Part shown: piece by piece, positions 5,632 through 34,754 of the stretch
Numbering within the stretch: the first letter of the stretch is position 1
Layout: each line of letters starts with the position of its first letter
Source of the DNA: an uncultured Gammaproteobacteria bacterium
GTDB lineage: Bacteria; Patescibacteriota; Patescibacteriia; UBA9934
Assembly: GCA_964425965.1 (NCBI GenBank)
Contig: CAYROW010000001.1
Coordinates: forward strand, 9,082 to 50,408
Length of the DNA: 41,327 nucleotides
Direction: 5' to 3'
The notes under the pieces: model-generated
What the model saw: only the letters and a program-made list of their open reading frames with translations
What the model was told of the DNA's origin: nothing
The model's database searches: none
Program-made: the position numbers and the translations under genes

Positions 5632-7254
5632 TTAGTACATATCTCCCATACCTCCCCCTGCGCCACCAGCGTTCTCTTTCTCAATCTTTGGCACCTCGGT
5701 AATAGCTGCTTCAGTCGTGAGAATCATTACGGCAACTGACGCCGCGTTCTGCAGCGCCGATCGCGTGACTTTCGCAGGGTCGATGATGCCGACCGCAACC
5801 ATATCTACGTCTTTATCTTCTGCAGCATCCCATCCGTTATTTCCGGTCATTCCCTTTACTCGCTCAACAACAACGGCGCCTTCGTGACCAGCGTTCTCGG
5901 CAATCTGACGAAGCGGCGATTCAACAGCTCGACTCAAAATATCGACACCGATCTTTTCCTCTGCGCTCACGACGAGACCGGCGAGCACCGCCTTCGCACG
6001 AATCAACGCCACGCCACCACCGGCAACGATTCCCTCTTCAATAGCCGCTTTTGTTGCAGCAACTGCATCTTCGATGCGATGCTTCTTCTCTTTCATCTCA
6101 ACCTCACTTGCAGCACCAACCTTAATAACAGCAACACCGCCAGAAATCTTTGCCATGCGCTCACGGAACTTTTCTTTATCGAAGTCGGAGTCAGAATTTT
6201 CGAGCTGTGCCTTAATATTGACGACGCGATCCGCGATCGCCGCAGCATCGCCAGCGCCTTCGACGATTGTCGTTGTGTCTTTCGTTGAGATAACGCGGCG
6301 CGCATGACCAAGATCAGCCAATTCGAGTGTTTCGAATTTCATTCCGGTTTCTGGAGCAATGAACTTCGCACCAGTCACAATCGCAATGTCTTCAAGCATC
6401 GCCTTACGACGATCGCCGTATGCAGGCGCTTTAATTGCAAGCACATTCAACGCGCCACGAAGCTTGTTCAACACAAGCGCCGTCATCGCCTCACCATCGA
6501 CGTCTTCTGCGATGATGACGAGATCCTTACGGCCTGTTCCAAGAAGCTTTTCCAAAATGGGCATGAGCGTCTGCATGCTGCTGATTTTCTCGCTTGTTAC
6601 AAGAACAGGAACATCGTTATAGACAGCCTCCATGCGCTCGGAATTCGTCACCATGTATGGAGAAACGTATCCCTTGTCGAATTGCATTCCTTCAACAACA
6701 TCAACCTCAATACCGAAGGACTGGCCTTCTTCAACAGTAATGACCCCGTTCTCACTTACTTTCTTCATCGCTTCCGCGATCATCTTTCCGATCTCTGGAT
6801 CATTCGCGGAAATGGACGCAACCTGTTCGATAGCGTTCCCGTGAACCGGCGTTGAAATCTCTGCAATCTTTTTTACAATCGCTTCAACACCTTTTTCGAT
6901 TCCCCGACGAAGCGCTTGAGAATTCACACCAGAGGAAACCACACGCAAACCTTCAGAAATAATCGACTGCGCAAGAACCACAGCTGTCGTTGTTCCATCG
7001 CCGGCAACGTCGTTTGTTTTGCTTGCAGCCTCTTTCACCAAGGTTGCGCCAAGATTCTCAAGTTTGTCGGCGAGTTCGACTTCCTTTGCAACAGAAACGC
7101 CATCTTTCGTTACCATCGGTGAACCAAAGCCACGATCGATGATTACCGTTCGTCCGCGGGGGCCCATCGTCACTTTCACGGCGTTTGCTAACTGATCTGC
7201 GCCATCTTTCATTTTCTTTCGTGCGTCATCACTGAAAACAATGTTCTTTGCCAT
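5632..7254 (-). CDS. groEL: Chaperonin GroEL
   Basis: MAKNIVFSDDARKKM..., AGDGTTTA and the C-terminal GGAGGGMGDMY tail. The start is set at the ATG at 7254, just after the groES stop; the track's 7296 start overlaps groES. Confidence 0.97.
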   Translation of the reverse strand: MAKNIVFSDDARKKMKDGADQLANAVKVTMGPRGRTVIIDRGFGSPMVTKDGVSVAKEVELADKLENLGATLVKEAASKTNDVAGDGTTTAVVLAQSIISEGLRVVSSGVNSQALRRGIEKGVEAIVKKIAEISTPVHGNAIEQVASISANDPEIGKMIAEAMKKVSENGVITVEEGQSFGIEVDVVEGMQFDKGYVSPYMVTNSERMEAVYNDVPVLVTSEKISSMQTLMPILEKLLGTGRKDLVIIAEDVDGEAMTALVLNKLRGALNVLAIKAPAYGDRRKAMLEDIAIVTGAKFIAPETGMKFETLELADLGHARRVISTKDTTTIVEGAGDAAAIADRVVNIKAQLENSDSDFDKEKFRERMAKISGGVAVIKVGAASEVEMKEKKHRIEDAVAATKAAIEEGIVAGGGVALIRAKAVLAGLVVSAEEKIGVDILSRAVESPLRQIAENAGHEGAVVVERVKGMTGNNGWDAAEDKDVDMVAVGIIDPAKVTRSALQNAASVAVMILTTEAAITEVPKIEKENAGGAGGGMGDMY

Positions 7255-9306: not shown

Positions 9307-10144
9307 TATGATGAAATTTTAGCATGCCGTCCGTCACAACAACGCGTGTATCTGTATTCATCATCGTACGAAGGTTTGCTGGGAATCGAGCACGCTGCAT
9401 ACGCTCAGCAATACGCTCAATTCCTCCAATATTCGGCAACATCCATCTTCCATTAACGCGATACGCCTGAGCACGAACCACTCGGCGTGCATGCGGAAGC
9501 GACGGACGCATCCAGCCATTTGCCGCACGAAGCTTTGAAAGAATGTTTCCCCGATCAAGTATTGGCGACAGCGTCGCAAGCCAAAACAAGAAATATGGGT
9601 CATCAGAACCAATCTTCACTGACGACAAATCGAGCCGATCGTCAGCAACAAAAAAACTTAAACACATTGGATCTTTTCCGCGCTCGCCAGGACGCGCATG
9701 AAGGAGCGCAAGCGCGCCAGCAAGAAGAAGACGCGTCGACCAAATCCCTCCACGCGACGTCACAATGAATACATCAATGTCGCTCTCCTCATTCGTAAAC
9801 GAAAACGCAAGTGAGTTGCAGACCGCAACCATTTTTACCCACGGAAGCCACGACGCTACACGCACAAACCACTGCGCGCGTCGAGACTTTCGAAGCGCAT
9901 CCGCAACACGCGAAATGCGCTCTGTTCTCCACGCGCGCGTATCTCCAAGCGCAAAGAAGCCCTGTTCTTGAACGCATCCGTGCTTCCGAAGCCATACTGA
10001 TGACGTGAGCACGTCTTCAATGTCAACAAGCGTCGCCTGAGAAAGATCGCACCATTTCCAAATCTCGTACGCCGTCAACGGAAACTGAAAAAACGCGAAA
10101 TATGCCAACACGCGAAACGCTGACTGTTCGATTGGTGTCGGCAT
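9191..10144 (-). CDS. Hypothetical protein with a possible nucleotidyltransferase-fold core
   Basis: 317-aa ORF. The segment CNSLAFSFTNEESDIDVFIV resembles the G-S...D-x-D strand of minimal nucleotidyltransferases. I recognise nothing else. Confidence 0.45.
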   Translation of the reverse strand: MPTPIEQSAFRVLAYFAFFQFPLTAYEIWKWCDLSQATLVDIEDVLTSSVWLRKHGCVQEQGFFALGDTRAWRTERISRVADALRKSRRAQWFVRVASWLPWVKMVAVCNSLAFSFTNEESDIDVFIVTSRGGIWSTRLLLAGALALLHARPGERGKDPMCLSFFVADDRLDLSSVKIGSDDPYFLFWLATLSPILDRGNILSKLRAANGWMRPSLPHARRVVRAQAYRVNGRWMLPNIGGIERIAERMQRARFPANLRTMMNTDTRVVVTDGMLKFHHNDRRSEILQAYESLLSQLDDAVSVDRDCAPAMANAMDV

Positions 10145-11912: not shown

Positions 11913-13127
11913 TTACTCGGCAATAACTGCATCGTCGGCAGGAACCTCAACTGGAGCAACAGCGCCGTCCGCCTGCCGTTCCTGAATGTTCACCTTCCAT
12001 CCGGTCAGCTTTGCAGCCAAACGTACGTTCTGACCTCCGCGACCAATCGCAAGCGAAAGCTGATCACTTGGAACAACAACGATTGCCGCGTGTTCTGTCT
12101 CGTCAAGGTTTACTTCAAGAACTTTTGCTGGAGAAAGCGCGTGGGTAATAAGCTCACGAGCATTTTCGCTCCACTGAATGATATCGATTTTCTCACCAGA
12201 AAGTTCGCTAGTAATGGTCTGAATACGGCTTCCACGCTGACCAATACACGCGCCGATCGGATCAATTCCTGCATCAGTCGATGCAACCGCAATCTTCGTA
12301 CGCGCACCGGCCTCACGTGCGATTGCTTTAATAACAACCGTTCCCTCAGCAACTTCCGGAATTTCAACCATGAACAACTTGCGGACAAGTTCTTCGCTCG
12401 TTCGTGAAAGCAAAATCTGTGCGCCACGAGCGCCAAGAGACACTTCGCGAACGTAAAACTTCAAACGATCACCGGATCGATAGCGCTCTGTTGGCATTGC
12501 ATCTTCCGGCTTCACAATTCCTGCAGTACGACCAATATCAACGAGAATAATGCGACCTTCACGGCGCTGAACCGTTCCCACAATCACGTCGCCCTCAACA
12601 CCCTTAAACTCGTTAAAAATAATTTCGCGCTCTGCTTCACGAAGCTTCTGGGTAATAACCTGCTTCGCAGTCATCGCTGCCATTCTGCCGAACTCCACAG
12701 CTTGTGGAAGCTCTGTACGCAAAACATCACCAACCTTCGCTCCCATCTTCATGAGCTGCGCGTCAGAAAGCATAATGTCAGTCTTCGGATTGAACTTTGG
12801 CGCAATTTCTTCTGGGGAGGTTTCTGCAGGAGGCATAAAGTCTCCCAACGCTTTCATTGCCTCACGACGAGCAGACTCCTCGGCTTCAAGTTTCTTCACT
12901 TCTTCCATTTCTTCTGGAGTAATGTCTGCAACCACCGTTTTTACATCGAAAATACGAGCGAGACCTGTTTCTGTATCAAATTTTGCCTCAAGGTTGTGAT
13001 ACTTATCGCCAAAATCCTTACGGTACGCTGCCGCCAACGCGGACTCGATTGTCGCCATGACGCTTTCGTAGCTCAAACCCTTCTCGTCACAAATCTGACG
13101 CATTGCTAACTCGATTGCACTTGCCAT
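11913..13127 (-). CDS. nusA: Transcription termination/antitermination factor NusA
   Basis: An N-terminal domain, an S1 domain (GDVIVGTVQRREGRIILVDIG) and two KH domains (GACIGQRGSRIQTITSELSGEKIDII, AIGRGGQNVRLAAKLTGWKVNI). Confidence 0.93.
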   Translation of the reverse strand: MASAIELAMRQICDEKGLSYESVMATIESALAAAYRKDFGDKYHNLEAKFDTETGLARIFDVKTVVADITPEEMEEVKKLEAEESARREAMKALGDFMPPAETSPEEIAPKFNPKTDIMLSDAQLMKMGAKVGDVLRTELPQAVEFGRMAAMTAKQVITQKLREAEREIIFNEFKGVEGDVIVGTVQRREGRIILVDIGRTAGIVKPEDAMPTERYRSGDRLKFYVREVSLGARGAQILLSRTSEELVRKLFMVEIPEVAEGTVVIKAIAREAGARTKIAVASTDAGIDPIGACIGQRGSRIQTITSELSGEKIDIIQWSENARELITHALSPAKVLEVNLDETEHAAIVVVPSDQLSLAIGRGGQNVRLAAKLTGWKVNIQERQADGAVAPVEVPADDAVIAE

Positions 13128-13214
13128 ATTCGATTGTTCTTCAATTTTTTAGCAGTGAAACCTGGCATTGCGGCCAGGTTTCAACATGAGAATAGGATAG
13201 CACAGCGCGATAGA

Positions 13215-13448
13215 CTACGCAATATTCGTGACGATCTTCAATTGAACGATGTCGCGTTGGCATTCATCAATTTGTGGGAGGATTTGGCCCCCAATGAACT
13301 CAGTCACTTCCGAGATAATCTTCTTTTCAGTAACGACTAACAATGCACGCATCTCATCGCGAATCTCGCGTTTGAGTACATGGTTATTCGCCCCCAACAC
13401 TTCACCAAACATACCACGAAGCACTCGAACATCTTCTTTGTTCAGCAT
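13215..13448 (-). CDS. Small hypothetical protein (77 aa, helical/coiled-coil-like)
   Basis: This is an ORF-only call. The composition looks plausible and I see no motif. Confidence 0.3.
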   Translation of the reverse strand: MLNKEDVRVLRGMFGEVLGANNHVLKREIRDEMRALLVVTEKKIISEVTEFIGGQILPQIDECQRDIVQLKIVTNIA

Positions 13449-13628
13449 AGAAACAAAAAATGAAGAATGAAATTCGTGGGGACTCCTTGTATCATATCAA
13501 GATTTTTTTCCACTGTCATTTCATTTCTCCACAATATCTCGGACTATAATTATATGCACAAGAAATACGCTACAATCAAAGATGTAACCTCTAATAAGTT
13601 CATCGACACCATTAAAAAATGAAACCGT

Positions 13629-13967
13629 ATGTCCCTCCACTATATTCTTTTTTGTTTCGGAGCCGGGTTAGTACAGGGCACATGGCTAAAATCAAACGAG
13701 CTAAATCCACTTAACACCCCCATATGGTGGGAGACGGAAAATAGAAAAGTTTTTGTTTTTATTTTGGCTATAATTTCTTTTCTTCTTGAACTTGGGATCG
13801 GTTTTCTATTCGTCTCATGGTGGGCGGGGCTATTCCTCTGGTTGCCGGCGCTACTACTTTCAGTCTTATTTGTTCCGGGTGGTCCCTTTGGAACAAAAAA
13901 TCCGATGATTCAACTCTCGCTTGGAATAATTATTATGATTGCTGAGCTGATAACATTTAAATTTTAA
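13629..13967 (+). CDS. Small membrane protein in an AT-rich patch
   Basis: 112 aa with 3-4 hydrophobic segments. The local sequence is clearly more AT-rich than its neighbours. Confidence 0.45.
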   Translation: MSLHYILFCFGAGLVQGTWLKSNELNPLNTPIWWETENRKVFVFILAIISFLLELGIGFLFVSWWAGLFLWLPALLLSVLFVPGGPFGTKNPMIQLSLGIIIMIAELITFKF

Positions 13968-13977
13968 ATCCGGCAAT

Positions 13978-14328
13978 CTACCCCACCCCAATAATGTGCG
14001 TGATCCGGGGAGGAGATTGATCGTATTCAATCGCAACGACGTCAATGCGCCATTCGGATTGAGGGTGATCGCTCATGAAATGTTCGGCGACGATGGCGAT
14101 TTTACGGAGTTTCGATTTTGTCACGGATTCTTCAGGATACCCGAACTCGTGATCATTCCTCGCCTTTACCTCGACCATCACAAATTCCTCGCCATCTTTT
14201 GCAATAATGTCGATTTCGCCAAAGCGATTTCGGTATTGCGTGTCGATAATCTTCATCGTTTTCGATTTCAAAAACGCAGCGGCGTCGGCCTCCGCTGCGT
14301 TTCCAAAAATCCTCCTCTTATCGACCAT
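13978..14328 (-). CDS. yraN: YraN family (UPF0102) endonuclease-like protein
   Basis: GNAAEADAAAFL...FGEIDIIAKDGEEFVMVEVKAR matches the YraN signature. The start is set at the ATG at 14328 (MVDKRRIFG), right after the upstream ORF's stop. The Cys/Arg-rich extension in the track looks spurious. Confidence 0.8.
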   Translation of the reverse strand: MVDKRRIFGNAAEADAAAFLKSKTMKIIDTQYRNRFGEIDIIAKDGEEFVMVEVKARNDHEFGYPEESVTKSKLRKIAIVAEHFMSDHPQSEWRIDVVAIEYDQSPPRITHIIGVG

Positions 14329-14333
14329 AGCGA

Positions 14334-14750
14334 CTATCGAGAGCGCTTTGGAAGGTACTTGTTCACGTCTGCACGAGACTGCTCGCGGTACTGCAACGCT
14401 GGAACCTCTTTCTTGACGTATCGGACAATTGCAACAACCGCAGCAACGACAGCAAGAATCCACACAAGGAACCAGAAGCGAGAGCCAAAAAATTGAATTT
14501 CCTCAAAGGTGAAGAAGAACCATACCAATCCCACGACACCAGAAACCGAACACAACGACGCGATCTTCTTGAGGGTTATTGCGCGATATCGATCGTATGT
14601 TCCGTTACGAACCACCATGCGGATCACTGAACCCGCAATAACCGTAAGTGCAAAGAATCCGAAAAATCCTGCCTCAAACGCCGCGGACATGCGTGTCGGC
14701 GTCAGATCGAACCAAAAGCTCAAATTCCACAGTGGAGAGAGAAAATTCAT
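14334..14750 (-). CDS. Membrane protein, unknown function
   Basis: Four hydrophobic segments. The start is either the ATG at 14750 (MNFLSPLW) or the TTG at 14789. Confidence 0.45.
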   Translation of the reverse strand: MNFLSPLWNLSFWFDLTPTRMSAAFEAGFFGFFALTVIAGSVIRMVVRNGTYDRYRAITLKKIASLCSVSGVVGLVWFFFTFEEIQFFGSRFWFLVWILAVVAAVVAIVRYVKKEVPALQYREQSRADVNKYLPKRSR

Positions 14751-21259: not shown

Positions 21260-23884
21260 TTATGACACAAGCGCTGCGTGCTCTTTTTGAAGCGCAGCAA
21301 GTTTTTCCTGAAGATCGGCAAGTTTTTGCCGTTCTCCCGCAATCACCTTCTCCGGCGCACGCTTCACAAAATCCTCATTCGCGAGCTTTGATTCTTGAGC
21401 TGCGATGAACGTTGTTGCATTAGCAATCTCGGATTCGATTCGAATCTTTTCCGAAGCAGCATCGACGGCCGGTAATTGTACGAAGATCTGCGCCGCACCA
21501 ACCACAATCGGCGTTACTGATTCCGGACGCTCATCACTCGATTGCACGTTCTTCACTTTCGTGAGGCCGCCGATGATTGACGTCATATCACCAAGAACAC
21601 CAGCATTCACAAGCACAATCGACTCAACGTCCTTCGGTAATGTTTTATGTTCCGAGAGATAATTACGGATCGCAATTACCGAAGAACATACCTGCTCAAA
21701 CGCAACCCGATCCTCCGACGACAATTCGTGTTCGACGACCGGCCACGTTGCGACGATGATCATTCCGGAGTTGAAGTTCTTGTAAATTTCTTCCGTCACG
21801 AATGGTGCGAATGGGTGCCAAAGAATGAGTAAGCGTTCGAGAATATAAAGAAGAACGTCGCTCTTCTCGCCTTCGATCTTCGCGATTTCCAAATACCAAT
21901 CCGCGAAGTCATTCCAGGTAAAGTCGCGCAACACTTCGATCGCGAGCGAGAAGTCGTAACGATCGATGAGTGAGCTCACCTTCTTTGCCGTCTCACTAAA
22001 CCGCGCAAGGATCCATTTGTCGGCGAGCGTCTTTGGCTCCACAGAGTCGATGCGATGAGCACCGTTCGCATTCGTAAAGATGAATCGCGAAATGTTCCAC
22101 AACTTGTTCACAAGGTTGCGCGATGCTTCAACTTTCTCAATGTAATATCGCGAATCATTTCCTGGCGTGTTGCCGGAAAGCACAGAAATACGGAGCGCAT
22201 CGCAACCGTATTCATTAATCACTTCGATAGGATCGATTCCGTTCCCAGACGACTTTGAGAATTTCTTTCCGTCTTTATCACGAAGAATCCCGTGAATGTA
22301 TGCGTCTTTGAATGGAATTTCATTCAGCGCATACGTGCTCATGAGAATCATGCGCATTAACCACAAGTACAAAATTTCATATCCCATCTGAATCCAATTC
22401 GTTGGATGGAAATTCTTGAGATCTGGAGTTTGCTCCGGCCAACCAAGCGTCGAGAACGTCCATGATCCGCTCGAGAACCATGTATCGAGCGTATCTTCGT
22501 CTTGAACCCAATCATCGCCTTCCGGCTTTGCGCCGACAACAACGTCTTCCCCTCGATACCACGCCGGAATGCGGTGACCCCACCAAAGCTGGCGCGAAAG
22601 ACACCAATCGCGGAGATTTTCGACGCGATCGAGATAGAGTTTTGTGAATCGATCTGGCGTAATCGATACTTTCTGATTCAAATCTCCCCCAAGGCCAGTT
22701 GTCACGGCTTCACGCATCAAATCGCGCAACGTTTTTCCGCGACCTGGAATTTCTTTGTTCACGTTCAGCCACCACTGCGTCATGGGAATAGCCTCAATAA
22801 CATCGCCATACCGATCAGATGTTCCGACGTTCTGAACAACCTTCTCTTCTTTTTCGAGAAGTCCTTGTTCATTCAGCCACGTCGCCACAGATTCGCGCGC
22901 CGCCTCAACATTCATGCCGGCAAGCATTCCTGCTTCTGCAGTCATCTTCCCGTCCATGCCAATCACCTGTTTGATTTCAATAGGATCCTGCTTTGCCTTC
23001 TGCGCTTCGTACATACCGAAGTCGATCGCGCTATGCGCAGGAGTCACGCCAAGTGCGCCAGTACCAAAAGAAGGATCAACTGCATCGCTTGCGATCACTT
23101 TAATCGAGAGCTTTGCCCCCGCAAATTCAACATCAAACGTCTTTCCAACAAACGCTGCGTATCGATCATCAGTCGGGTGAACGGCAACGGCAGTGTCGCC
23201 AACCTTCGTTTCCGGTCGTGTTGTCGAAATCGTGATCGGAAAATCTTTACTGTACTTGAACGTGTATAAAACGGATTCGCGTTCGATGGTTTCAATCTCA
23301 TCGTCAGAACACGTGGACTGGCCTTTCACCGACCAATTCACTACGCGGAATCCGCGATAGATGAGTCCATCGGTATACATTCGTGTAAAAAGTTCGTTCA
23401 CCGCAGCGCTCCGCTTGTCGTCGAACGTGTATGCCAAACGGCTCCAATCTGCACTGGTTCCTAATTTCTTTACCTGTGTAAGAATCGTGGATTTTGAGCT
23501 TTCAGCAAACTCGCGAATTTTCTCAAGCAATCCTTCGCGGCCAAGTTCCTGCCGAGGATTCTTCATTCCACCAGCCATGAGATTTTTCTCAACGCGCGCC
23601 TGTGTGGCGATTGCGGCGTGATCGGTTCCTGGCACGAGAAGCACTTTCTTTCCCAACAAACGCTGGTACCGAACCATCGCGTCCATGAGGGAGTTTTCAA
23701 GCGCATGGCCAAGGTGAAGCACACCCGTCACGTTCGGCGGAGGCATCACCACAGTGAACGCTTCGGTGGAATCGGTAATGTTTGGCAAGCCCTCTGGCGA
23801 AAAATAGCCTGAGCTTAGCCAAGATTCATAAATTCCATCCTCCACGAGCTTCGCCTCGTATGCCTTTGCCATTTCGTTTGCCAT
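21260..23884 (-). CDS. valS: Valyl-tRNA synthetase
   Basis: PPPNVTGVLHLGHAL, KFSKSSGN (KMSKS-type), an editing domain and a C-terminal coiled coil. The start is set at the ATG at 23884 (MANEMAKAYEAKLVED) or at 23872. The 38-codon extension to 23998 looks non-coding. Confidence 0.95.
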   Translation of the reverse strand: MANEMAKAYEAKLVEDGIYESWLSSGYFSPEGLPNITDSTEAFTVVMPPPNVTGVLHLGHALENSLMDAMVRYQRLLGKKVLLVPGTDHAAIATQARVEKNLMAGGMKNPRQELGREGLLEKIREFAESSKSTILTQVKKLGTSADWSRLAYTFDDKRSAAVNELFTRMYTDGLIYRGFRVVNWSVKGQSTCSDDEIETIERESVLYTFKYSKDFPITISTTRPETKVGDTAVAVHPTDDRYAAFVGKTFDVEFAGAKLSIKVIASDAVDPSFGTGALGVTPAHSAIDFGMYEAQKAKQDPIEIKQVIGMDGKMTAEAGMLAGMNVEAARESVATWLNEQGLLEKEEKVVQNVGTSDRYGDVIEAIPMTQWWLNVNKEIPGRGKTLRDLMREAVTTGLGGDLNQKVSITPDRFTKLYLDRVENLRDWCLSRQLWWGHRIPAWYRGEDVVVGAKPEGDDWVQDEDTLDTWFSSGSWTFSTLGWPEQTPDLKNFHPTNWIQMGYEILYLWLMRMILMSTYALNEIPFKDAYIHGILRDKDGKKFSKSSGNGIDPIEVINEYGCDALRISVLSGNTPGNDSRYYIEKVEASRNLVNKLWNISRFIFTNANGAHRIDSVEPKTLADKWILARFSETAKKVSSLIDRYDFSLAIEVLRDFTWNDFADWYLEIAKIEGEKSDVLLYILERLLILWHPFAPFVTEEIYKNFNSGMIIVATWPVVEHELSSEDRVAFEQVCSSVIAIRNYLSEHKTLPKDVESIVLVNAGVLGDMTSIIGGLTKVKNVQSSDERPESVTPIVVGAAQIFVQLPAVDAASEKIRIESEIANATTFIAAQESKLANEDFVKRAPEKVIAGERQKLADLQEKLAALQKEHAALVS

Positions 23885-23965
23885 AGATAGAGGCAAGTTT
23901 ATAGGAAACGAAGGAATCTTTAAAGTTGAGGTAATAGAAGAGGACGGGCGTGATCTGGAGTGCAT

Positions 23966-24094
23966 CTCACCCGGAGACTTCTCATGAAACCGAATCACGG
24001 CCTTCAGCGGCGCCGGTCAGACGCAAGCTGGGTCGAAAAGTCTGGTCGTGGGTTGTTTTCCGAAAATATTGAAAAAAATGACGTTCTCGGCTAA
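23966..24094 (+). pseudogene. Decayed stub of a fifth P-type cassette (leader, start and terminator tail only)
   Basis: ctcacccggagacttctcATGaaac closely matches the P1 leader ctcacctggagacttcgtcGTGaaac. The segment cgtgggttgtttt at 24047-24059 is identical to the P1 terminator tail at 24743-24755. Only a 36-codon ORF remains. Confidence 0.4.
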
Positions 24095-24097
24095 TCT
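24069..24097 (+). promoter_or_regulatory. Sigma70-type promoter of P1 (TTGAAA-N17-TAATCT)
   Basis: The hexamers and spacing were read directly. It lies 34 nt upstream of the GTG at 24131. Confidence 0.55.
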
Positions 24098-24130
24098 TTG
24101 GCGGGACAACCCTCACCTGGAGACTTCGTC

Positions 24131-24685
24131 GTGAAACTTCCCTCGCACACAATCCTCCTCTGCTATATCGCCGCCGTCGGCCGTATCCAGAAAATGATCG
24201 AGGCAGAACCGACCGACAGCCAACACGCCATGTCCTGGCTCCAAGCGATGATCAACATCAACACCGTGTACGAAAGCATGACGGGAATTCCGTACCACGT
24301 GATCGACCCCAGCATGCATTGTCTGGGCATCGGCAGGCAGGTCTGGCGCCTCTACCACGCCGTGCAGCTCCTCGCCGAATGGCGATTCGTATCCGGCACC
24401 GATGTGACGGAACGCGCGGTCATGACGGCATTCAACGAAATCGGGGATGAAGGCTTCGGCAACGACACCATCTTCACGTGCGACAACGTGTCGCCGGCCG
24501 CACAGCGCGCAATGCTCAACACGCCCTTCTTCGACGACGGGCTGCCCGGATGGATCGTCGAAGGAGTCGGGACCGAATCGCCTACCATGTTCGTAATCAC
24601 CGGAAGCGTCGGCGTGACCGCAGAACGCCTCCCGGAGAACGTTCGGTTCAACCAGGAACTGCAGATCTGGGACGTCGTTCGCTGA
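24131..24685 (+). CDS. P-family protein 1 (unknown function, cytoplasmic, about 184 aa)
   Basis: GTG start preceded by GGAGA at 24119-24123. It is a paralog of the next three ORFs, sharing the blocks VQLLAEWRF, IFTCDNVSPAAQRAML and PENVRFNQELQIWDV. There is no signal peptide or TM segment. Confidence 0.7.
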   Translation: MKLPSHTILLCYIAAVGRIQKMIEAEPTDSQHAMSWLQAMININTVYESMTGIPYHVIDPSMHCLGIGRQVWRLYHAVQLLAEWRFVSGTDVTERAVMTAFNEIGDEGFGNDTIFTCDNVSPAAQRAMLNTPFFDDGLPGWIVEGVGTESPTMFVITGSVGVTAERLPENVRFNQELQIWDVVR

Positions 24686-24715
24686 AAGGCTCAGCACACC
24701 GCAACACAACGCACG

Positions 24716-24756
24716 CCACGGCCCGCTCTTCGAGAGTCGGGCCGTGGGTTGTTTTT
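24716..24756 (+). terminator. Rho-independent terminator of P1
   Basis: CCACGGCCCG-ctcttcgagagt-CGGGCCGTGG followed by GTTGTTTTT. Confidence 0.75.
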
Positions 24757-24757
24757 A

Positions 24758-24787
24758 TTGACTTTTTTGCATTTTTCGGCTTACTAT
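24758..24787 (+). promoter_or_regulatory. Sigma70-type promoter of P2 (TTGACT-N17/18-TACTAT)
   Basis: Read directly. It begins 2 nt after the P1 terminator T-tract. Confidence 0.6.
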
Positions 24788-24814
24788 AGCGACGGCACAA
24801 CGCCCGGAGACATC

Positions 24815-25402
24815 ATGACCCTGCAGCTCATTCCCGAATCGCAGACCCCGACCGACAACCTCTTTCGCGCCCAGGAACGTGCGTTCGAAAGCCTCATCGT
24901 CACCATGAATGCCCCCGGAGGCGGAAGGGCGCCGAGGCATCGCATGATCCAAAACACGCTCACCGGACTCGAGGTGCTCTCCAGGAATCTGAAGGGGATT
25001 CCGTACTTCCCTCCCATTCGGCAGGTCGAATCTGACGGAATCGGACGGAAGGTTCATCACCTCTTCGCCGCCATGCAGCTCTTCGCGGAGTGGCGCTACA
25101 AACTGACGCGCGAAACGACCGAAGCGGACGTCATCGCTGCGTTCGATCTCGCGATGGCGTCGAGCACCAACGACGCCGCGATCTTCCCCGACGGCAACGT
25201 CCATCCGGCCGTGAAGCGCCTCGTTCTTCAAGGGCAGACGTATCGGCCGGAAGGAACGAGCAAGATGTCGATCCGCCTCGTTCATCCGAACCCGCGAATC
25301 GAGATCGATCTCCCGGGAAACGCATCGCCAATCATCGACACGGTTCCGCCGACCGTTCGGTTCAATCCTCAGACGTTCGTGTGGGAGATCTTCCTGCACT
25401 GA
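24815..25402 (+). CDS. P-family protein 2 (195 aa)
   Basis: The ATG at 24815 is preceded by cccGGAGAcatc. Paralog blocks are MQLFAEWRY, IFPDGNVHPAVKRLVL and PPTVRFNPQTFVWEI. Confidence 0.75.
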   Translation: MTLQLIPESQTPTDNLFRAQERAFESLIVTMNAPGGGRAPRHRMIQNTLTGLEVLSRNLKGIPYFPPIRQVESDGIGRKVHHLFAAMQLFAEWRYKLTRETTEADVIAAFDLAMASSTNDAAIFPDGNVHPAVKRLVLQGQTYRPEGTSKMSIRLVHPNPRIEIDLPGNASPIIDTVPPTVRFNPQTFVWEIFLH

Positions 25403-25408
25403 AGCCTT

Positions 25409-25449
25409 GCGGCTCGATTCCTTCGGGAGTCGAGCCGCGCTCTGTTTTT
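25409..25449 (+). terminator. Rho-independent terminator of P2
   Basis: GCGGCTCGA-ttc-cTTCGg-gag-TCGAGCCGC, with a cUUCGg tetraloop at the tip, followed by GCTCTGTTTTT. Confidence 0.75.
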
Positions 25450-25450
25450 C

Positions 25451-25478
25451 TTGACGAAACTTCGGAACACTTTACTAT
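25451..25478 (+). promoter_or_regulatory. Sigma70-type promoter of the P3-P4 bicistron (TTGACG-N16-TACTAT)
   Basis: Read directly. It begins immediately after the P2 terminator. Confidence 0.55.
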
Positions 25479-25503
25479 TTCTTCGCCACTCATTGGAGGC
25501 AAT

Positions 25504-26088
25504 GTGCATCGTTTACAAAATGTGCTCATCGCGCAATGCGTTGACGCCGCGTTCAATCGAGTACGGGAACACCTCGGAGACGTTCATCATCATGACGGGC
25601 ATGCATTGCGTGCGACCGCGCTTCACCAGCTTGATCGACTCTGGCAAACGATCGCAATGGGCCATGTCGAGTGCGTATCGTATCAAACGATCGCAATCAG
25701 CGGGCTCAACACCGTCACCGCACGCGGAGTCATCGCTTTGTACCAGGCGCTACAATCACTCGCGGCATGGCGACTTAGTCATCCGACTCGCAATGACATC
25801 CCGCCGGAGATTCACGAACTCTTCGAACACGTCGGCTCGCCTCCAGGAGGCGAGATCATCTTCCCTCGCGGCAACGTCTCACCTGACGCGCGGCAGGCAA
25901 TCCTGCAGGCCGATGATCGCCTCAAAAACGGCAACAGCGGATGGAACGTCTCCGTCGACACCATCCGATCTCGGATATACGTCGAAAACGCCAACGAGTC
26001 GTTCACCATCGAAATTCCACCAACCGTCGTCTTCAACCCGAATTCTGGGGTTTGGGGCATCCAAATCCCAAAAAAGGAGAATCCATGA
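25504..26088 (+). CDS. P-family protein 3 (194 aa)
   Basis: GTG at 25504 after GGAGGcaat. It is in frame with track ORF 25090..26088, whose upstream part overlaps P2 and is not coding. Paralog blocks are LQSLAAWRL, IFPRGNVSPDARQAIL and PPTVVFNPNSGVWGI. Confidence 0.7.
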   Translation: MHRLQNVLIAQCVDAAFNRVREHLGDVHHHDGHALRATALHQLDRLWQTIAMGHVECVSYQTIAISGLNTVTARGVIALYQALQSLAAWRLSHPTRNDIPPEIHELFEHVGSPPGGEIIFPRGNVSPDARQAILQADDRLKNGNSGWNVSVDTIRSRIYVENANESFTIEIPPTVVFNPNSGVWGIQIPKKENP

Positions 26089-26654
26089 GCCGCGAACTCG
26101 CGTCAGCAACCACCTTGAAGCTTCACGGAGCAGTCAGCCGGACAAAAGCCGCGCTCGTGCTACCAACGGCTCCAGACGTCATCGGGAAACATCATCCGCA
26201 ACACCAGGCGCTCGCCGCCCTCAAGGAATATGCGGCACAGGATGAGCCGCTGGTCCGATACAAACTCCTCGATGCCGCCGTCCTCCTGAAATACCCAGGA
26301 AGCTGGGCGCTGTTCCAACTCTTCGAGGCCATCCAGCTTCGGAATGCGTGGCAACTGGGGCTCATCGACACCCTTGATGACGACGGCATCGCGAATGCCT
26401 TTGACCGCGTCAGTCGGCCTCGCGACATGCTCCCCTTCTTCCCAGGGGGGAATGTCGCACCGCAGCTTCGACTGAAACTCCTCGCGTACGGACCGCTCAG
26501 GCCAAAGATCGGCTACGCCGTGTACTTGGAAGAAGGTTCGAACGGGCAGCATGTCGCGAAACTCACGCACAACGAGGTCGAGCCGTTCCGCATTCTTCTT
26601 CCGAAAGGAATTCACCACAACTCGGAAAGGGATGTGTGGGAAACGGTTCCGTAA
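26085..26654 (+). CDS. P-family protein 4 (189 aa), translationally coupled to P3
   Basis: The ATG at 26085 overlaps the P3 TGA (ATGA) and is preceded by AAGGAGA. Paralog blocks are IQLRNAWQL, FFPGGNVAPQLRLKLL and PKGIHHNSERDVWET. Confidence 0.7.
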   Translation: MSRELASATTLKLHGAVSRTKAALVLPTAPDVIGKHHPQHQALAALKEYAAQDEPLVRYKLLDAAVLLKYPGSWALFQLFEAIQLRNAWQLGLIDTLDDDGIANAFDRVSRPRDMLPFFPGGNVAPQLRLKLLAYGPLRPKIGYAVYLEEGSNGQHVAKLTHNEVEPFRILLPKGIHHNSERDVWETVP

Positions 26655-26663
26655 CTCTCGCTC

Positions 26664-26703
26664 ACGGCTCGGCCTCCCAGGAGGTCGAGCCGTTCGTCGT
26701 TTC
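26664..26703 (+). terminator. Terminator of the P3-P4 unit
   Basis: ACGGCTCGGCCTCC-ca-GGAGGTCGAGCCGT (one G:T pair) followed by TCGTCGTTTC. Confidence 0.65.
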
Positions 26704-26704
26704 A

Positions 26705-26735
26705 TAACAGAAACGAGCGGCCCGTGGGCCGCCCG
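26705..26735 (-). terminator. Terminator of Q1
   Basis: Minus strand: GCGGCCCACGGGCCGC followed by TCGTTTCTGTT. The core is identical to the Q2 terminator. Confidence 0.65.
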
Positions 26736-26747
26736 TCGTGTCGTCGT

Positions 26748-27533
26748 TCAGATACTGAAGACCCTCAGCGGAGGGATGCAGAGTGCCCGCAGCGTCTCCT
26801 CGCGGAGTCGCGAATTCGCTGCACTGTGGAGGAGCTCTCGACTAGCTCGCGTTTCCCGCATCTCATCCGTCACACTGGCCAGGTAGAGCGCGAGTTCCCC
26901 CATGGTCATGGTCGGAACGAGCACCGCCGACGGCAGTTCACGCGTGAGCACCTCGGCAACAGTAAGCGCCATGAACGCCGCAATCTCCTCCGCCACCGTG
27001 AGTGCCTTCGGCACAACCGGCACCGCGAGCGACGGATCGTAGATGAACAGCTCATCGAGCGGCATGAGCATGCGCAGGCCACACCTTTCCAGAGTCCCGT
27101 TCACCGTAGCCCTGAGGTCCGAGTGAGGGAGCTCCGAAACGAGATACTTCGACATCTTCCCAGGATTGACCCCTTGTGTCGAAGGCTCGCGCCCCATGGC
27201 GATCACTTCCCGGTTCACGTCCATGGTCGCGAAGACCAGGACGCGATTGAGATCGCTGAACATACCGAACGTGCATCCAGCCCACCGCAGCATCTCCTCT
27301 GCGAGATTCACCATCTTTGGACCGACGCCATCCAGGGCACCGAGATTCGAACGGTTGAAGCAGGCGAGCATCCAAGCCATCTCGATCCGGTTCTCGAGGC
27401 ACACGTTTTTGAAACGCGTCACGAGCGCAGACGACCACTCTTCATGCCGGGCACGCTCGAGGAGCGTATCGATCGGCATGCCGAGGACATCGAGCGGAAC
27501 CGGGGACGGGATCGGGAGCGTGAGCTTGGCCAA
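26748..27533 (-). CDS. Q-family protein 1 (261 aa); possible tandem helix-hairpin-helix (RNAP alpha-CTD-like) protein
   Basis: TTG start preceded by AAGGAGG. It is a paralog of Q2, sharing SPVPLDVLGMPIDTLLER, DELF and the C-terminal L.YLA...D.M...R..LL.S. The HhH call rests only on pattern resemblance. Confidence 0.7.
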   Translation of the reverse strand: MAKLTLPIPSPVPLDVLGMPIDTLLERARHEEWSSALVTRFKNVCLENRIEMAWMLACFNRSNLGALDGVGPKMVNLAEEMLRWAGCTFGMFSDLNRVLVFATMDVNREVIAMGREPSTQGVNPGKMSKYLVSELPHSDLRATVNGTLERCGLRMLMPLDELFIYDPSLAVPVVPKALTVAEEIAAFMALTVAEVLTRELPSAVLVPTMTMGELALYLASVTDEMRETRASRELLHSAANSRLREETLRALCIPPLRVFSI

Positions 27534-27604
27534 GAGACCTCCTTGCCTCGCACGAGAGTGTGCGGAGGACGAGGAACCTTAGCAAATATTTATAAAAATG
27601 TCCA
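27534..27604 (-). promoter_or_regulatory. Q1 promoter (TGGACA-N17-TAAGGT) plus conserved structured leader
   Basis: It is about 87 percent identical over 67 nt to the Q2 upstream region. The hairpin CCTC-C-GCAC/GTGC-GAGG contains a CCTCC anti-SD just upstream of the AAGGAGG SD. Confidence 0.55.
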
Positions 27605-27627
27605 TCACGACTCTCTCTGCCTTACTC

Positions 27628-27662
27628 CAAATGTGAAACGAGCGGCCCGTGGGCCGCTCGTC
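27628..27662 (-). terminator. Terminator of Q2
   Basis: Minus strand: CGAGCGGCCCACGGGCCGCTCG followed by TTTCACATTT. It shares 29 of 30 nt with the Q1 terminator. Confidence 0.65.
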
Positions 27663-27683
27663 GTCGTGAGTCGCGCGTGATTA

Positions 27684-28427
27684 TCAGTCTACGAGGATGC
27701 TGATCCCCATCTGCCTAAGCACGTCACGGTTAAAATTCCATTTCACCGAAGCGAGCAGATCGTTTCGCGCCCGTACCATGGCAGGAGACATGGGGTCCTT
27801 CGCGGTCGCAAGATAGAAGAGGATCTCCACAACATGTGCGTCCGAGTCGAGACCGAACGGACGAGGATCCGTCTGCACCTCCCCAACCTTCAGCGCAGCG
27901 AAGCGCGCAATTTCTCCAGCCGGCGTGCCTTTCTTCACCCGCTTCAGGTCGAAGCAGAACAGCTCGTCGGGTGACATACGGGAACGAAGACCGTACCGGG
28001 CAAGAGTAGCGACGAAGCGCCTATCCTTCACTCGGTCATCAGTTCCCGCGATCGCCATACGAACCTCGATATCAGAGGGCCAGTCCTGATTCGACGTCTT
28101 CCTTACCTCAGCCGCGCAAAATTCGGTGGCCGCACGAAGCTGCGGGAACATGTCGAGATGGCACTCAACCAACGCGAGAGCCTCTTCGGCGAGATCCGCG
28201 ATGAGAGCACCGCAACCATCGCACTCGAGAAGGCGTTTCCGTGAATTGATCGCGAGGGTCCAAACGGAATTGAAACCGTTTTTCCGACAGAAGTTCCCAA
28301 TCAGAGTGATTTTTTTGCGCGGATGGCGTTTTTCCGCCGAGAGGCGATCGAGAAGCGTATCGATCGGCAGCAGAAGCGTCTCGAGCGGAACGGGAGACAG
28401 AACGGGAAGAATGAGCGGGTTGGCCAA
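27684..28427 (-). CDS. Q-family protein 2 (247 aa)
   Basis: The start is set at the TTG at 28427, by analogy with Q1 (caaaGGAGGccttTTGGCCAAC). The track's start at 28448 has no SD. Confidence 0.7.
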   Translation of the reverse strand: MANPLILPVLSPVPLETLLLPIDTLLDRLSAEKRHPRKKITLIGNFCRKNGFNSVWTLAINSRKRLLECDGCGALIADLAEEALALVECHLDMFPQLRAATEFCAAEVRKTSNQDWPSDIEVRMAIAGTDDRVKDRRFVATLARYGLRSRMSPDELFCFDLKRVKKGTPAGEIARFAALKVGEVQTDPRPFGLDSDAHVVEILFYLATAKDPMSPAMVRARNDLLASVKWNFNRDVLRQMGISILVD

Positions 28428-28499
28428 AAGGCCTCCTTTGTCTTGCACGAGAGTGTGCAGAGGACAAGGAATCTTAGCGAAGATTTACAAAAATGTCCA
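28428..28499 (-). promoter_or_regulatory. Q2 promoter (TGGACA-N17-TAAGAT) plus conserved structured leader
   Basis: This is the second copy of the Q1 element. Its hairpin shows a compensatory C-G to U-A change. Confidence 0.55.
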
Positions 28500-28574
28500 C
28501 ATGCAAAATAGTGCATCCTTGACCGAGCCTCACGCAGCCGATAGGCTTGCTCCTCACCCAAGCATAGATTCTGC

Positions 28575-32569: not shown

Positions 32570-32646
32570 TGGTAGGCTCACCTGGACTCGAACCAGGGAC
32601 CACCGAGGTATAAGCTCGGCGCTCTAACCAACTGAGCTATGAGCCC
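32570..32646 (-). tRNA. tRNA-Ile (anticodon TAT), CCA encoded
   Basis: Minus strand: GGGCTCA-TA-GCTC-AGTTGGTTA-GAGC-G-CCGAG-CTTATAC-CTCGG-TGGTC-CCTGG-TTCGAGT-CCAGG-TGAGCCT-A-CCA. Positions 34-36 read TAT. Confidence 0.85.
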
Positions 32647-34412: not shown

Positions 34413-34754
34413 ATGACCGACGCAATCGAAACCACCGACATCATGCCAACCGTCGAAACCGGCATGGTGATCCGTATTCACGAAAAAATCCAAGACGTCA
34501 ACGCGAAGGGCGAACCACGCGAACGTATCCAGATCTTTGAGGGTCTCGTCACCGCAACCCGCGGCGCTGGCGCATCAAAGTCGTTCGTTGTCCGCAAGGA
34601 GAGCAACGGATTCGGCGTTGAGAAGATTTTCCCAACCACTTCGCCGGTCATCACCAAGATCGAAGTCGTGAAGCGCTACAAGGTCCGCAAGCGCAAGTTG
34701 AACTTCATGAAAGACTTCGGCCGCAAGCTCCGCGAACTCGTCGTGAAGAAATAA
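34413..34754 (+). CDS. rplS: 50S ribosomal protein L19
   Basis: RIQIFEGLVTATRGAGASKSFVVRKESNGFGVEKIFPTTSPVITKIEVV matches the L19 core. Confidence 0.93.
   Translation: MTDAIETTDIMPTVETGMVIRIHEKIQDVNAKGEPRERIQIFEGLVTATRGAGASKSFVVRKESNGFGVEKIFPTTSPVITKIEVVKRYKVRKRKLNFMKDFGRKLRELVVKK

Follow-up and report, generated by a model that had tools for sequence, protein, structure and literature searches.

Tandem P and Q paralogs between valS and a DHH-family gene of Patescibacteria, with an RNA polymerase alpha-CTD-like domain predicted in Q

The DNA analyzed here is a stretch of 41,327 nucleotides (nts) of contig CAYROW010000001.1 (assembly GCA_964425965.1, positions 9,082 to 50,408), referred to as the window, from a member of the Patescibacteriia (UBA9934). 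Between valS and a DHH-family gene, the window holds four genes of one family, here called P, and a stub on the plus strand, and two genes of a second family, called Q, on the minus strand. These six open reading frames (ORFs) were found where the original prediction had placed them. The flanks of the array are core genes, with argS, tyrS and valS on one side and the DHH-family gene, the CCA-adding enzyme gene, rluD, cmk and rplS on the other; valS and the DHH-family gene are its immediate neighbours, and the tRNA synthetases, the CCA-adding enzyme and others lie farther out. None of P1 to P4, Q1 and Q2 matched Pfam, NCBIfam, PHROGs or PADLOC at E < 0.01. All PHROG matches had E > 0.07, and the single match in PADLOC-DB, that of P1 to DpdD (E 0.049, 10 bits), was at chance level, the other five proteins giving none. 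A literature search found nothing relevant, and an Rfam scan of the window returned tRNAs only. Neither family has a transmembrane segment or a signal peptide (Kyte-Doolittle values in 19-residue windows reach no higher than 1.63), in agreement with what had been predicted for P.

P1 to P4 align end to end with 20 invariant columns and three motif blocks, so their proposed paralogy on the basis of three shared blocks was correct. Their strong divergence was also correct, but the identity, estimated earlier as 25-40%, was 23-26% when measured. A search for P among 5.8 billion proteins gave 10 clusters, and an exhaustive profile search gave 28 matches (E <= 1e-3) among 1.84 billion representative proteins. 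Three of the 28, long chitin-binding, SLH or other repeat proteins, were spurious, three were fragments of 86-92 amino acids (aa), and the rest were stand-alone proteins, mostly of 178-240 aa. Matches of the P profile to polyubiquitin were rejected as sums of repeat matches of about 2 bits each. In the 28-sequence alignment, Pro, Tyr, Leu, Gln, Phe, Pro and Trp are conserved and the motifs are PY, LFEAxQLLAEW, IFPxGNVSPAAxR and PPxVxFN..W, and no conserved set of catalytic-looking residues was seen. The isoelectric point (pI) of the members ranges from 4.8 to 10; P3 is 45% identical to the P gene product Pc of the related locus L001, and P4 44% identical to P of locus L002. The AlphaFold2 (AF2) model of P2, calculated from 11 sequences with a predicted local distance difference test score (pLDDT) of 79 and a predicted template modelling (TM) score (pTM) of 0.79, consists of five helices followed by five short strands, and Foldseek found no fold match for it in the PDB (best E 0.42, TM at most 0.26) or in BFVD (best E 0.15). 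We infer that P may be a binding or scaffold protein, for which the model predicts a new alpha+beta fold.

Q1 and Q2 are paralogs (35% identity, E 1e-25) and show no relationship to P by profile comparison (hhalign probability 0.1%), both as originally proposed. A search for Q among 5.8 billion proteins gave 10 clusters. A match of Q1 to a Salmonella jumbo phage (E 4e-3) was rejected because its probability in profile comparison was 0.5%. The AF2 model of Q1, calculated from 10 sequences, had a pLDDT of 87 and a pTM of 0.62, and pLDDT exceeded 90 over most of the N-domain. In the model, the N-terminal region of about 90 residues (approximately 15-90) superposes on the C-terminal domain of the RNA polymerase alpha subunit (alpha-CTD) in more than 25 PDB chains (Foldseek probability ~1.00, target-normalised TM 0.77-0.88, root-mean-square deviation 2.0-2.4 Å over 75 residues, 20% identity), and shows the hallmark of that domain, a compact four-helix fold with two helix-hairpin-helix motifs. 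When the Q N-domain profile was compared with PDB sequences, E values were 0.03-0.2 and RNA polymerase alpha accounted for 11 of the 15 matches. Therefore, the claim that the array genes could not be assigned to any family stands for P, which matches neither a known family nor a known fold, and holds only by half for Q, whose N-domain is predicted to have the alpha-CTD fold.

In Q, the alpha-CTD-like domain comes first, at the N-terminus, and about 170 unrelated helical residues follow, with no alpha N-terminal domain (alpha-NTD). These C-terminal residues have no sequence relative in the PDB, and no internal repeat was found in Q. Conservation is highest in two segments, the N-terminal LPIPSPVPL and the central MPLEELFVYDP, which pair as strands in the model. 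The '265 determinant' for DNA binding by alpha-CTD comprises R265, N268, G296, K298 and S299 (E. coli numbering). According to a hidden Markov model alignment to the B. subtilis alpha-CTD (1z3e_B), 8 of the 10 Q members have a counterpart of R265, 7 have one of N268, 7 one of G296 and about 4 one of K298, and all four are retained in the family consensus and in Q1.

The coordinates of the array features are given in Table 1. Alignment showed that the valS-P gap of loci L012 and L002 is the ortholog of 23885-23990 in the window, Shine-Dalgarno (SD) sequence and start codon included, and that window positions 23991-24101, comprising the 3′ half of a terminator and a new promoter, are found in the window lineage only. 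On this alignment the stub noted originally is a true remnant of a P cassette. Predicted hairpin terminators follow P1, P2, P4, Q1 and Q2, and the P2 and P3 promoters directly adjoin the terminator of the preceding gene, giving the recurrent junctions TGTTTTT-A-TTGAC and TGTTTTT-C-TTGAC that had been noted. The P terminators share the common plan CACGGCYCG...CGRGCCGTG and vary with compensation. Near-consensus promoters had been assigned throughout; this was true of P2 and P3, but the sites of P1 and Q1 are weaker. The region upstream of Pb in L001 (TTGAAA-17-TAGTAT) has the same layout as the P1 site. A promoter and terminator can be assigned to each transcription unit as proposed, but P3 and P4 overlap and share one unit, and the number of units is therefore five, not six. 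Judged from these elements and junctions, complete promoter-SD-gene-terminator units were duplicated in tandem, which is what had been proposed.

Table 1. Predicted features of the P/Q array, in window coordinates
Feature	Position	Strand	Details
Stub, P-cassette remnant	23954..24059	+	SD, ATG at 23984 and a few codons, joined to terminator 3′ half and T-run (24039-24059)
P1 promoter-like site	24069..24097	+	TTGAAA, 17-nt spacer, TAATCT; read from the sequence, under the threshold of the scan tool
P1 gene	24131..24685	+	184 aa; GTG start, GGAG SD; GC3 0.79
P1 terminator hairpin and T-run	24716..24756	+	Stem arms CCACGGCCCG...CGGGCCGTGG
P2 promoter	24758..24787	+	TTGACT, 18-nt spacer, TACTAT; 9/12 consensus positions
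P2 gene	24815..25402	+	195 aa; protein chosen for the structure model
P2 terminator	25408..25449	+	14-bp stem, then T-run
P3-P4 promoter	25451..25478	+	TTGACG, 16-nt spacer, TACTAT; 9/12 consensus positions
P3 gene	25504..26088	+	194 aa; GTG start; stop overlaps P4 start in ATGA
P4 gene	26085..26654	+	189 aa; predicted to be cotranscribed with P3
P4 terminator hairpin	26663..26703	+	CACGGCTCGG...TCGAGCCG; convergent with Q1 terminator
Q-type 3′ hairpin of Q1	26713..26736	-	ACGGGCGGCC-CACG-GGCCGCTCGT
Q1 gene	26748..27533	-	261 aa; TTG start, AAGGAGG SD; N-terminal ~90 aa alpha-CTD-like in the model
Q1 leader and promoter	27534..27604	-	-35 TGGACA (27599-27604); -10 TAAGGT (27576-27581); GCAC/GTGC leader hairpin just upstream of SD
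Q-type 3′ hairpin of Q2	27638..27661	-	ACGAGCGGCC-CACG-GGCCGCTCGT
Q2 gene	27684..28427	-	247 aa; TTG start, AAGGAGG SD
Q2 leader and promoter	28428..28499	-	TGGACA, 17-nt spacer, TAAGAT

Two further observations concern P-type terminators. An exact 15-nt repeat, GAGGTCGAGCCGTTC, occurs at 26574-26588 in the 3′ coding end of P4 and at 26681-26695 in the stem of its terminator, and may be the trace of an older terminator taken into the coding sequence. In L002, a P-type terminator hairpin (GCCCGGATTCCTTCGGGAGTCCGGG, within 9880-9960) stands upstream of the P promoter and is preceded by no P gene; it may be a further cassette remnant. In addition, long ORFs run antisense or off-frame across the P and Q genes (24113-24709, 24755-25399 and 26160-26705 on the minus strand, 26724-27680 on the plus strand). 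They are a by-product of coding rich in GC at the third codon position (GC3) and mislead gene callers that choose the longest ORF; the public annotation of L001 puts a 110-aa minus-strand gene across a genuine P gene.

The sequences around the Q genes are far more similar than the genes themselves. The regions upstream of Q1 and Q2 share 87% identity over 62 nts and 78% over 75 nts, whereas the coding DNA is only 48% identical. Upstream of Q, all 5 species compared have the -35 region TGTGGACATTT, the -10 hexamer, a GTCC box and a small hairpin in the leader, which takes the forms GCAC/GTGC, GCGC/GCGC and CCGC/GCGG; we retain this leader hairpin as a suggestion. A dyad within the promoter spacer was dropped, since it stands out in L005 and L003 whereas Q2 and L002 do not show it clearly. 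At the 3′ side of every Q gene there is a 24-nt hairpin, ACGAGCGGCC-NNCG-GGYCGCTCGT; aligned over six genes, it shows 25 invariant columns. In the window and the fetched loci this hairpin adjoins Q genes only, and the number of matches expected by chance is 0. Such invariance exceeds the need of a generic terminator.

We compared the window with L001, L002 and L003 at the amino-acid level. Neighbouring genes were 84-93% identical (argS about 70%), whereas the best matches of the P and Q proteins were only 26-51% identical; across the related genomes the identity of valS was 76-92%. The ratio of nonsynonymous to synonymous divergence (omega, Nei-Gojobori) was 0.26-0.48 for P and Q and 0.04-0.08 for the housekeeping neighbours. 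Against L012, the closest other species, the nonsynonymous (dN) and synonymous (dS) divergence was 0.036 and 0.89 for valS and 0.231 and 0.52 for P1. P1 is 98% identical to its counterpart in the strain variant L011 and 68% identical to that in L012, and at the strain level the changes in P1 and P2 together number 4 nonsynonymous and 1 synonymous. By these comparisons P and Q diverge several times as fast as the genes around them, by a factor of about six, whereas the Q control sequences are near-fixed.

The GC content in 1-kb windows was 0.58-0.60 across 24000-28000 and 0.47-0.50 over valS, and the compositional deviation first counted by hand was thus borne out by sliding-window analysis and by GC3. 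GC3 was 0.62-0.79 for the P and Q genes, 0.53 for valS, 0.51-0.56 for valS, DHH and the CCA enzyme gene taken together, and 0.44-0.63 for the window genes other than rplS; in the proposed P and Q frames it was far above GC content at the first and second positions (GC1 and GC2). A similar difference was observed in the relatives. P and Q had GC3 of 0.69-0.82 against 0.52-0.62 for neighbours in L001, L002, L003 and L005; in L014, with an overall GC of 0.46, two P genes had 0.66 and 0.56 against 0.40-0.42; in L018, P had 0.78 against 0.56-0.61; and P of L017 had 0.87. The excess over neighbours is about 0.15-0.25 in every genome, at overall GC from 0.46 to 0.60, indicating that it is a stable trait of the families and not a mark of recent transfer. 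Two other orphan genes also showed raised GC3, a 168-aa gene in L003 (10826-11332, minus strand; 0.71) and a 431-aa gene in L017 (1367-2662; 0.90). The former stands at the P position and the latter upstream of the most divergent P, and both were found to be unrelated to P and Q.

Outside the array, comparably high GC3 is confined to rplS, which encodes ribosomal protein L19 (window 34413-34754; 0.74). In the relatives, however, rplS has 0.49-0.64 and P stays higher, and although the P and Q genes share the preference of rplS for TTC and ATC, they favour CCG, GGG, CGG and AGG, which rplS avoids. Simple expression bias as the source of high GC3 was thus partly supported only, given these contrasts in codons and rplS orthologs. 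One candidate for the source is GC-biased gene conversion at a recombination-prone locus, which a tract in valS beside the array supports. All 15 synonymous differences between the window and L011, among 777 bp compared, fall in 187 bp of valS (23513-23699), and this tract looks like a recombination import.

The position of the array was found to be conserved. The gene order from argS to rplS is common to metagenome-assembled genomes and metagenome contigs of related Patescibacteria, and P and/or Q genes lie inside the valS-DHH gap in 11 of the 12 informative loci (0-4 P, 0-2 Q; L020 was too short to place and is not among them). The exception is L017, whose most divergent P is located elsewhere. 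Besides the stub, four P and two Q genes of the window, the gap contains two P and at least one Q in L012; a P fragment, one Q and at least one P in L002; three P and no Q in L001; two P each in L014 and L021; one P each in L018 and L010; one Q and the unrelated 168-aa orphan in L003; and one Q each in L009 and L005, the contig of the latter ending on the far side. The strain-level copies of the window, L006-L008 and L011, have the arrangement unchanged. Since some loci carry P only (L001, L010, L014, L018 and L021) and others Q only (L003 and L009), P and Q are not obligate partners, and the linkage between them that had been envisaged was not supported by the related genomes. No integrase, flanking direct repeat or adjacent tRNA was found at the array, the closest tRNA genes being about 3.2 kb from its right end and about 8 kb from its left end. 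P, Q and the Q hairpin were absent from phage, plasmid and IMG/VR collections (tblastn and scans), except for one match shown to be noise, and the cluster and representative-protein searches found no P or Q homologs outside the clade.

Three features apart from the array were also recorded. A tRNA-Ile gene with a UAU anticodon is located at window 32570-32646 on the minus strand; such a tRNA is uncommon in bacteria, in which AUA is mostly read by a lysidine-modified CAU tRNA. The GC dip (0.42-0.44) at window 13001-14500, around a UPF0102 (YraN-like) gene and short ORFs, is a compositional outlier in the direction opposite to the array. In L001 (GCA_943359525.1), a HigB-like toxin gene and a 67-aa partner lie between valS and tyrS (6005-6484), and are not in the window.

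We tentatively favor, at somewhat less than an even chance, the explanation that the locus is a resident, clade-specific array of non-enzymatic binding proteins, with Q probably acting on transcription. P is the usual occupant of the gap, single-copy in several genomes and multiplied here to four genes and a decayed cassette, and Q is a second occupant in a subset of genomes, duplicated here. Both would be small, soluble, cytoplasmic proteins, and because no conserved catalytic-looking residues were found, they most likely act by binding. Q may bind what alpha-CTD binds, namely promoter-proximal DNA or regulators that bind alpha-CTD, and may thereby modulate transcription, possibly its own, via the conserved promoter, leader or 3′ hairpin. 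The fast divergence is compatible with weak constraint as well as with an arms race against some phage or host factor, and P and Q may have a role in host interaction or conflict.

Several observations argue against this explanation. The alpha-CTD likeness comes from a model based on a 10-sequence alignment and from sequence scores below threshold, and PF03118 matched neither Q1 nor Q2 at E <= 1 nor any of 10 Q members at E <= 5. In Q2, Leu replaces the equivalents of both R265 and K298, and most Q proteins are acidic (pI 5.3-6.2), which makes direct DNA binding doubtful for at least some Q copies. The promoters and terminators are matches to consensus. The Q leader hairpin is thermodynamically ordinary (z-scores -0.8 to -1.8), with compensatory change in only 2 of 13 pairs. 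Omega below 1 is not proof of positive selection, and the GC3 excess resembles that of rplS only in part, the codon deviations correlating at 0.38.

An alternative that we consider unlikely but worth keeping in view involves neither conflict nor a particular part in transcription. Constraint on P and Q, as lineage-specific housekeeping or accessory proteins, would be relaxed, neutral tandem duplication would have multiplied them, and local mutational or gene-conversion bias would have raised their GC3. Their omega is typical of poorly constrained orphans, several genomes have one P copy only, at the fixed site, the recombination tract in valS adjoins the array, and the enrichment of G-ending and GGG/CGG codons goes beyond expression bias. 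Nevertheless, the strong SDs, individual promoters and terminators and near-invariant Q elements argue for maintained, regulated expression, and the core motifs are kept across all P and Q members. More speculative, and given only a small chance, is the proposal that Q proteins are free-standing alpha-CTD decoys that intercept or sense phage or host factors, with P as new-fold partners. The gap would then be a new type of conflict locus, in which constant recombination drives both GC3 and divergence and the invariant promoter, leader and hairpin serve as fixed points of control or exchange.

It is decidedly improbable that P and/or Q are episymbiont effectors exported into a host, Q mimicking alpha-CTD to manipulate host transcription. 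Fast evolution, variable surface charge and the alpha-CTD-like fold predicted for Q would suit such a role, and a gene for a type IV secretion system (T4SS) pilin lies about 6 kb away. However, P and Q have no signal peptide or recognisable secretion motif, the pilin gene is in conserved synteny with and without Q and so is not specifically linked, and the conserved Q N-terminus is modelled as packed in the fold, not free. Slightly less probable still, in our estimate, is the idea of an orphan immunity-protein array or an anti-phage defence or anti-defence locus. This analogy was drawn in the original prediction from divergent, small cytoplasmic paralogs in tandem, and the variation of copy number among species fits it too. 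But no gene for a toxin, nuclease, ATPase or other effector lies within the array or next to it, and there is no match to PADLOC, Pfam Imm families or PHROGs; nothing was found in the phage, plasmid and IMG/VR collections; promoters and terminators of their own are unlike the compact operons usual for immunity arrays; and some loci have P only, as a single copy at the fixed core site. The analogy thus found no positive support.

That the 'island' of the original prediction was recently acquired by horizontal transfer is very improbable and already largely refuted. The GC content of 0.58-0.60 against about 0.50 and the GC3 of up to 0.79 would agree with imported DNA, but both families occupy this very site in genomes that share 76-92% identity in valS, the GC3 excess is found in all of them, including that with 46% GC, there is no integrase, direct repeat or flanking tRNA, and no homologs were found outside the clade. 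Finally, that the ORFs are chance long frames in GC-rich DNA, as long ORFs on both strands across the region might suggest, is refuted by the conservation pattern, namely protein conservation across species with omega < 1, together with GC3 far above GC1 and GC2 in the proposed frames, confident AF2 models and SDs at the correct spacing.

Genomes of the candidate phyla radiation (CPR)/Patescibacteria are small, and roughly half of their genes have no assigned function; multi-copy genes that are kept in such reduced genomes merit attention. The combination of about six-fold faster coding divergence, a stable GC3 excess of about 0.2 and almost frozen control elements is a puzzle. If the predicted fold is correct, a stand-alone, fast-evolving protein of the alpha-CTD fold would be an unusual route to transcription, as a competitor, decoy or accessory DNA binder. 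A conflict or decoy function, if true, would represent a new type of system in bacterial immunity or symbiosis; otherwise, the locus would be a clean case of birth-and-death evolution of complete transcription units in a reduced genome.

Comparison with known systems shows a partial likeness to each. Integron cassette arrays are also serial cassettes ending in an imperfect inverted repeat, with boundaries more conserved than the cargo. However, the P and Q cassettes carry promoters, their short GC-rich hairpins with a T-run resemble intrinsic terminators, the Q cassettes are on the opposite strand, and neither an intI integrase nor an attI site is present here. Genomic islands and integration hot spots share the compositional contrast and the variable content between core genes, with occasional other orphans such as the 168-aa gene of L003, but this locus lacks mobility genes, att repeats and a flanking tRNA, its two families recur at the site from genome to genome, and the composition is a family trait. 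Orphan immunity arrays of polymorphic toxins likewise consist of tandem, strongly diverged small cytoplasmic paralogs in variable copy number, whereas P and Q have no toxin or Imm family, have their own promoters and terminators, and occupy a fixed core position, sometimes as a single copy. The locus fits none of the toxin-immunity, defence, island and integron types considered. The alpha-CTD itself (PF03118; PDB 3n97_B, 1lb2_E and 1z3e_B) is matched by the modelled Q in fold, in the register of the helix-hairpin-helix motifs and in the P-[IV]-D-x-L lead-in. In contrast to the alpha-CTD, which is tethered to the alpha-NTD in RpoA and encoded by a single-copy, slowly evolving gene, Q is free-standing with a helical extension of about 170 residues, multi-copy and fast-evolving, falls below all sequence-family thresholds, and has lost DNA-contact residues in some copies, such as Q2. 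P thus belongs to no known family or fold, and Q is a new architecture on a known fold.

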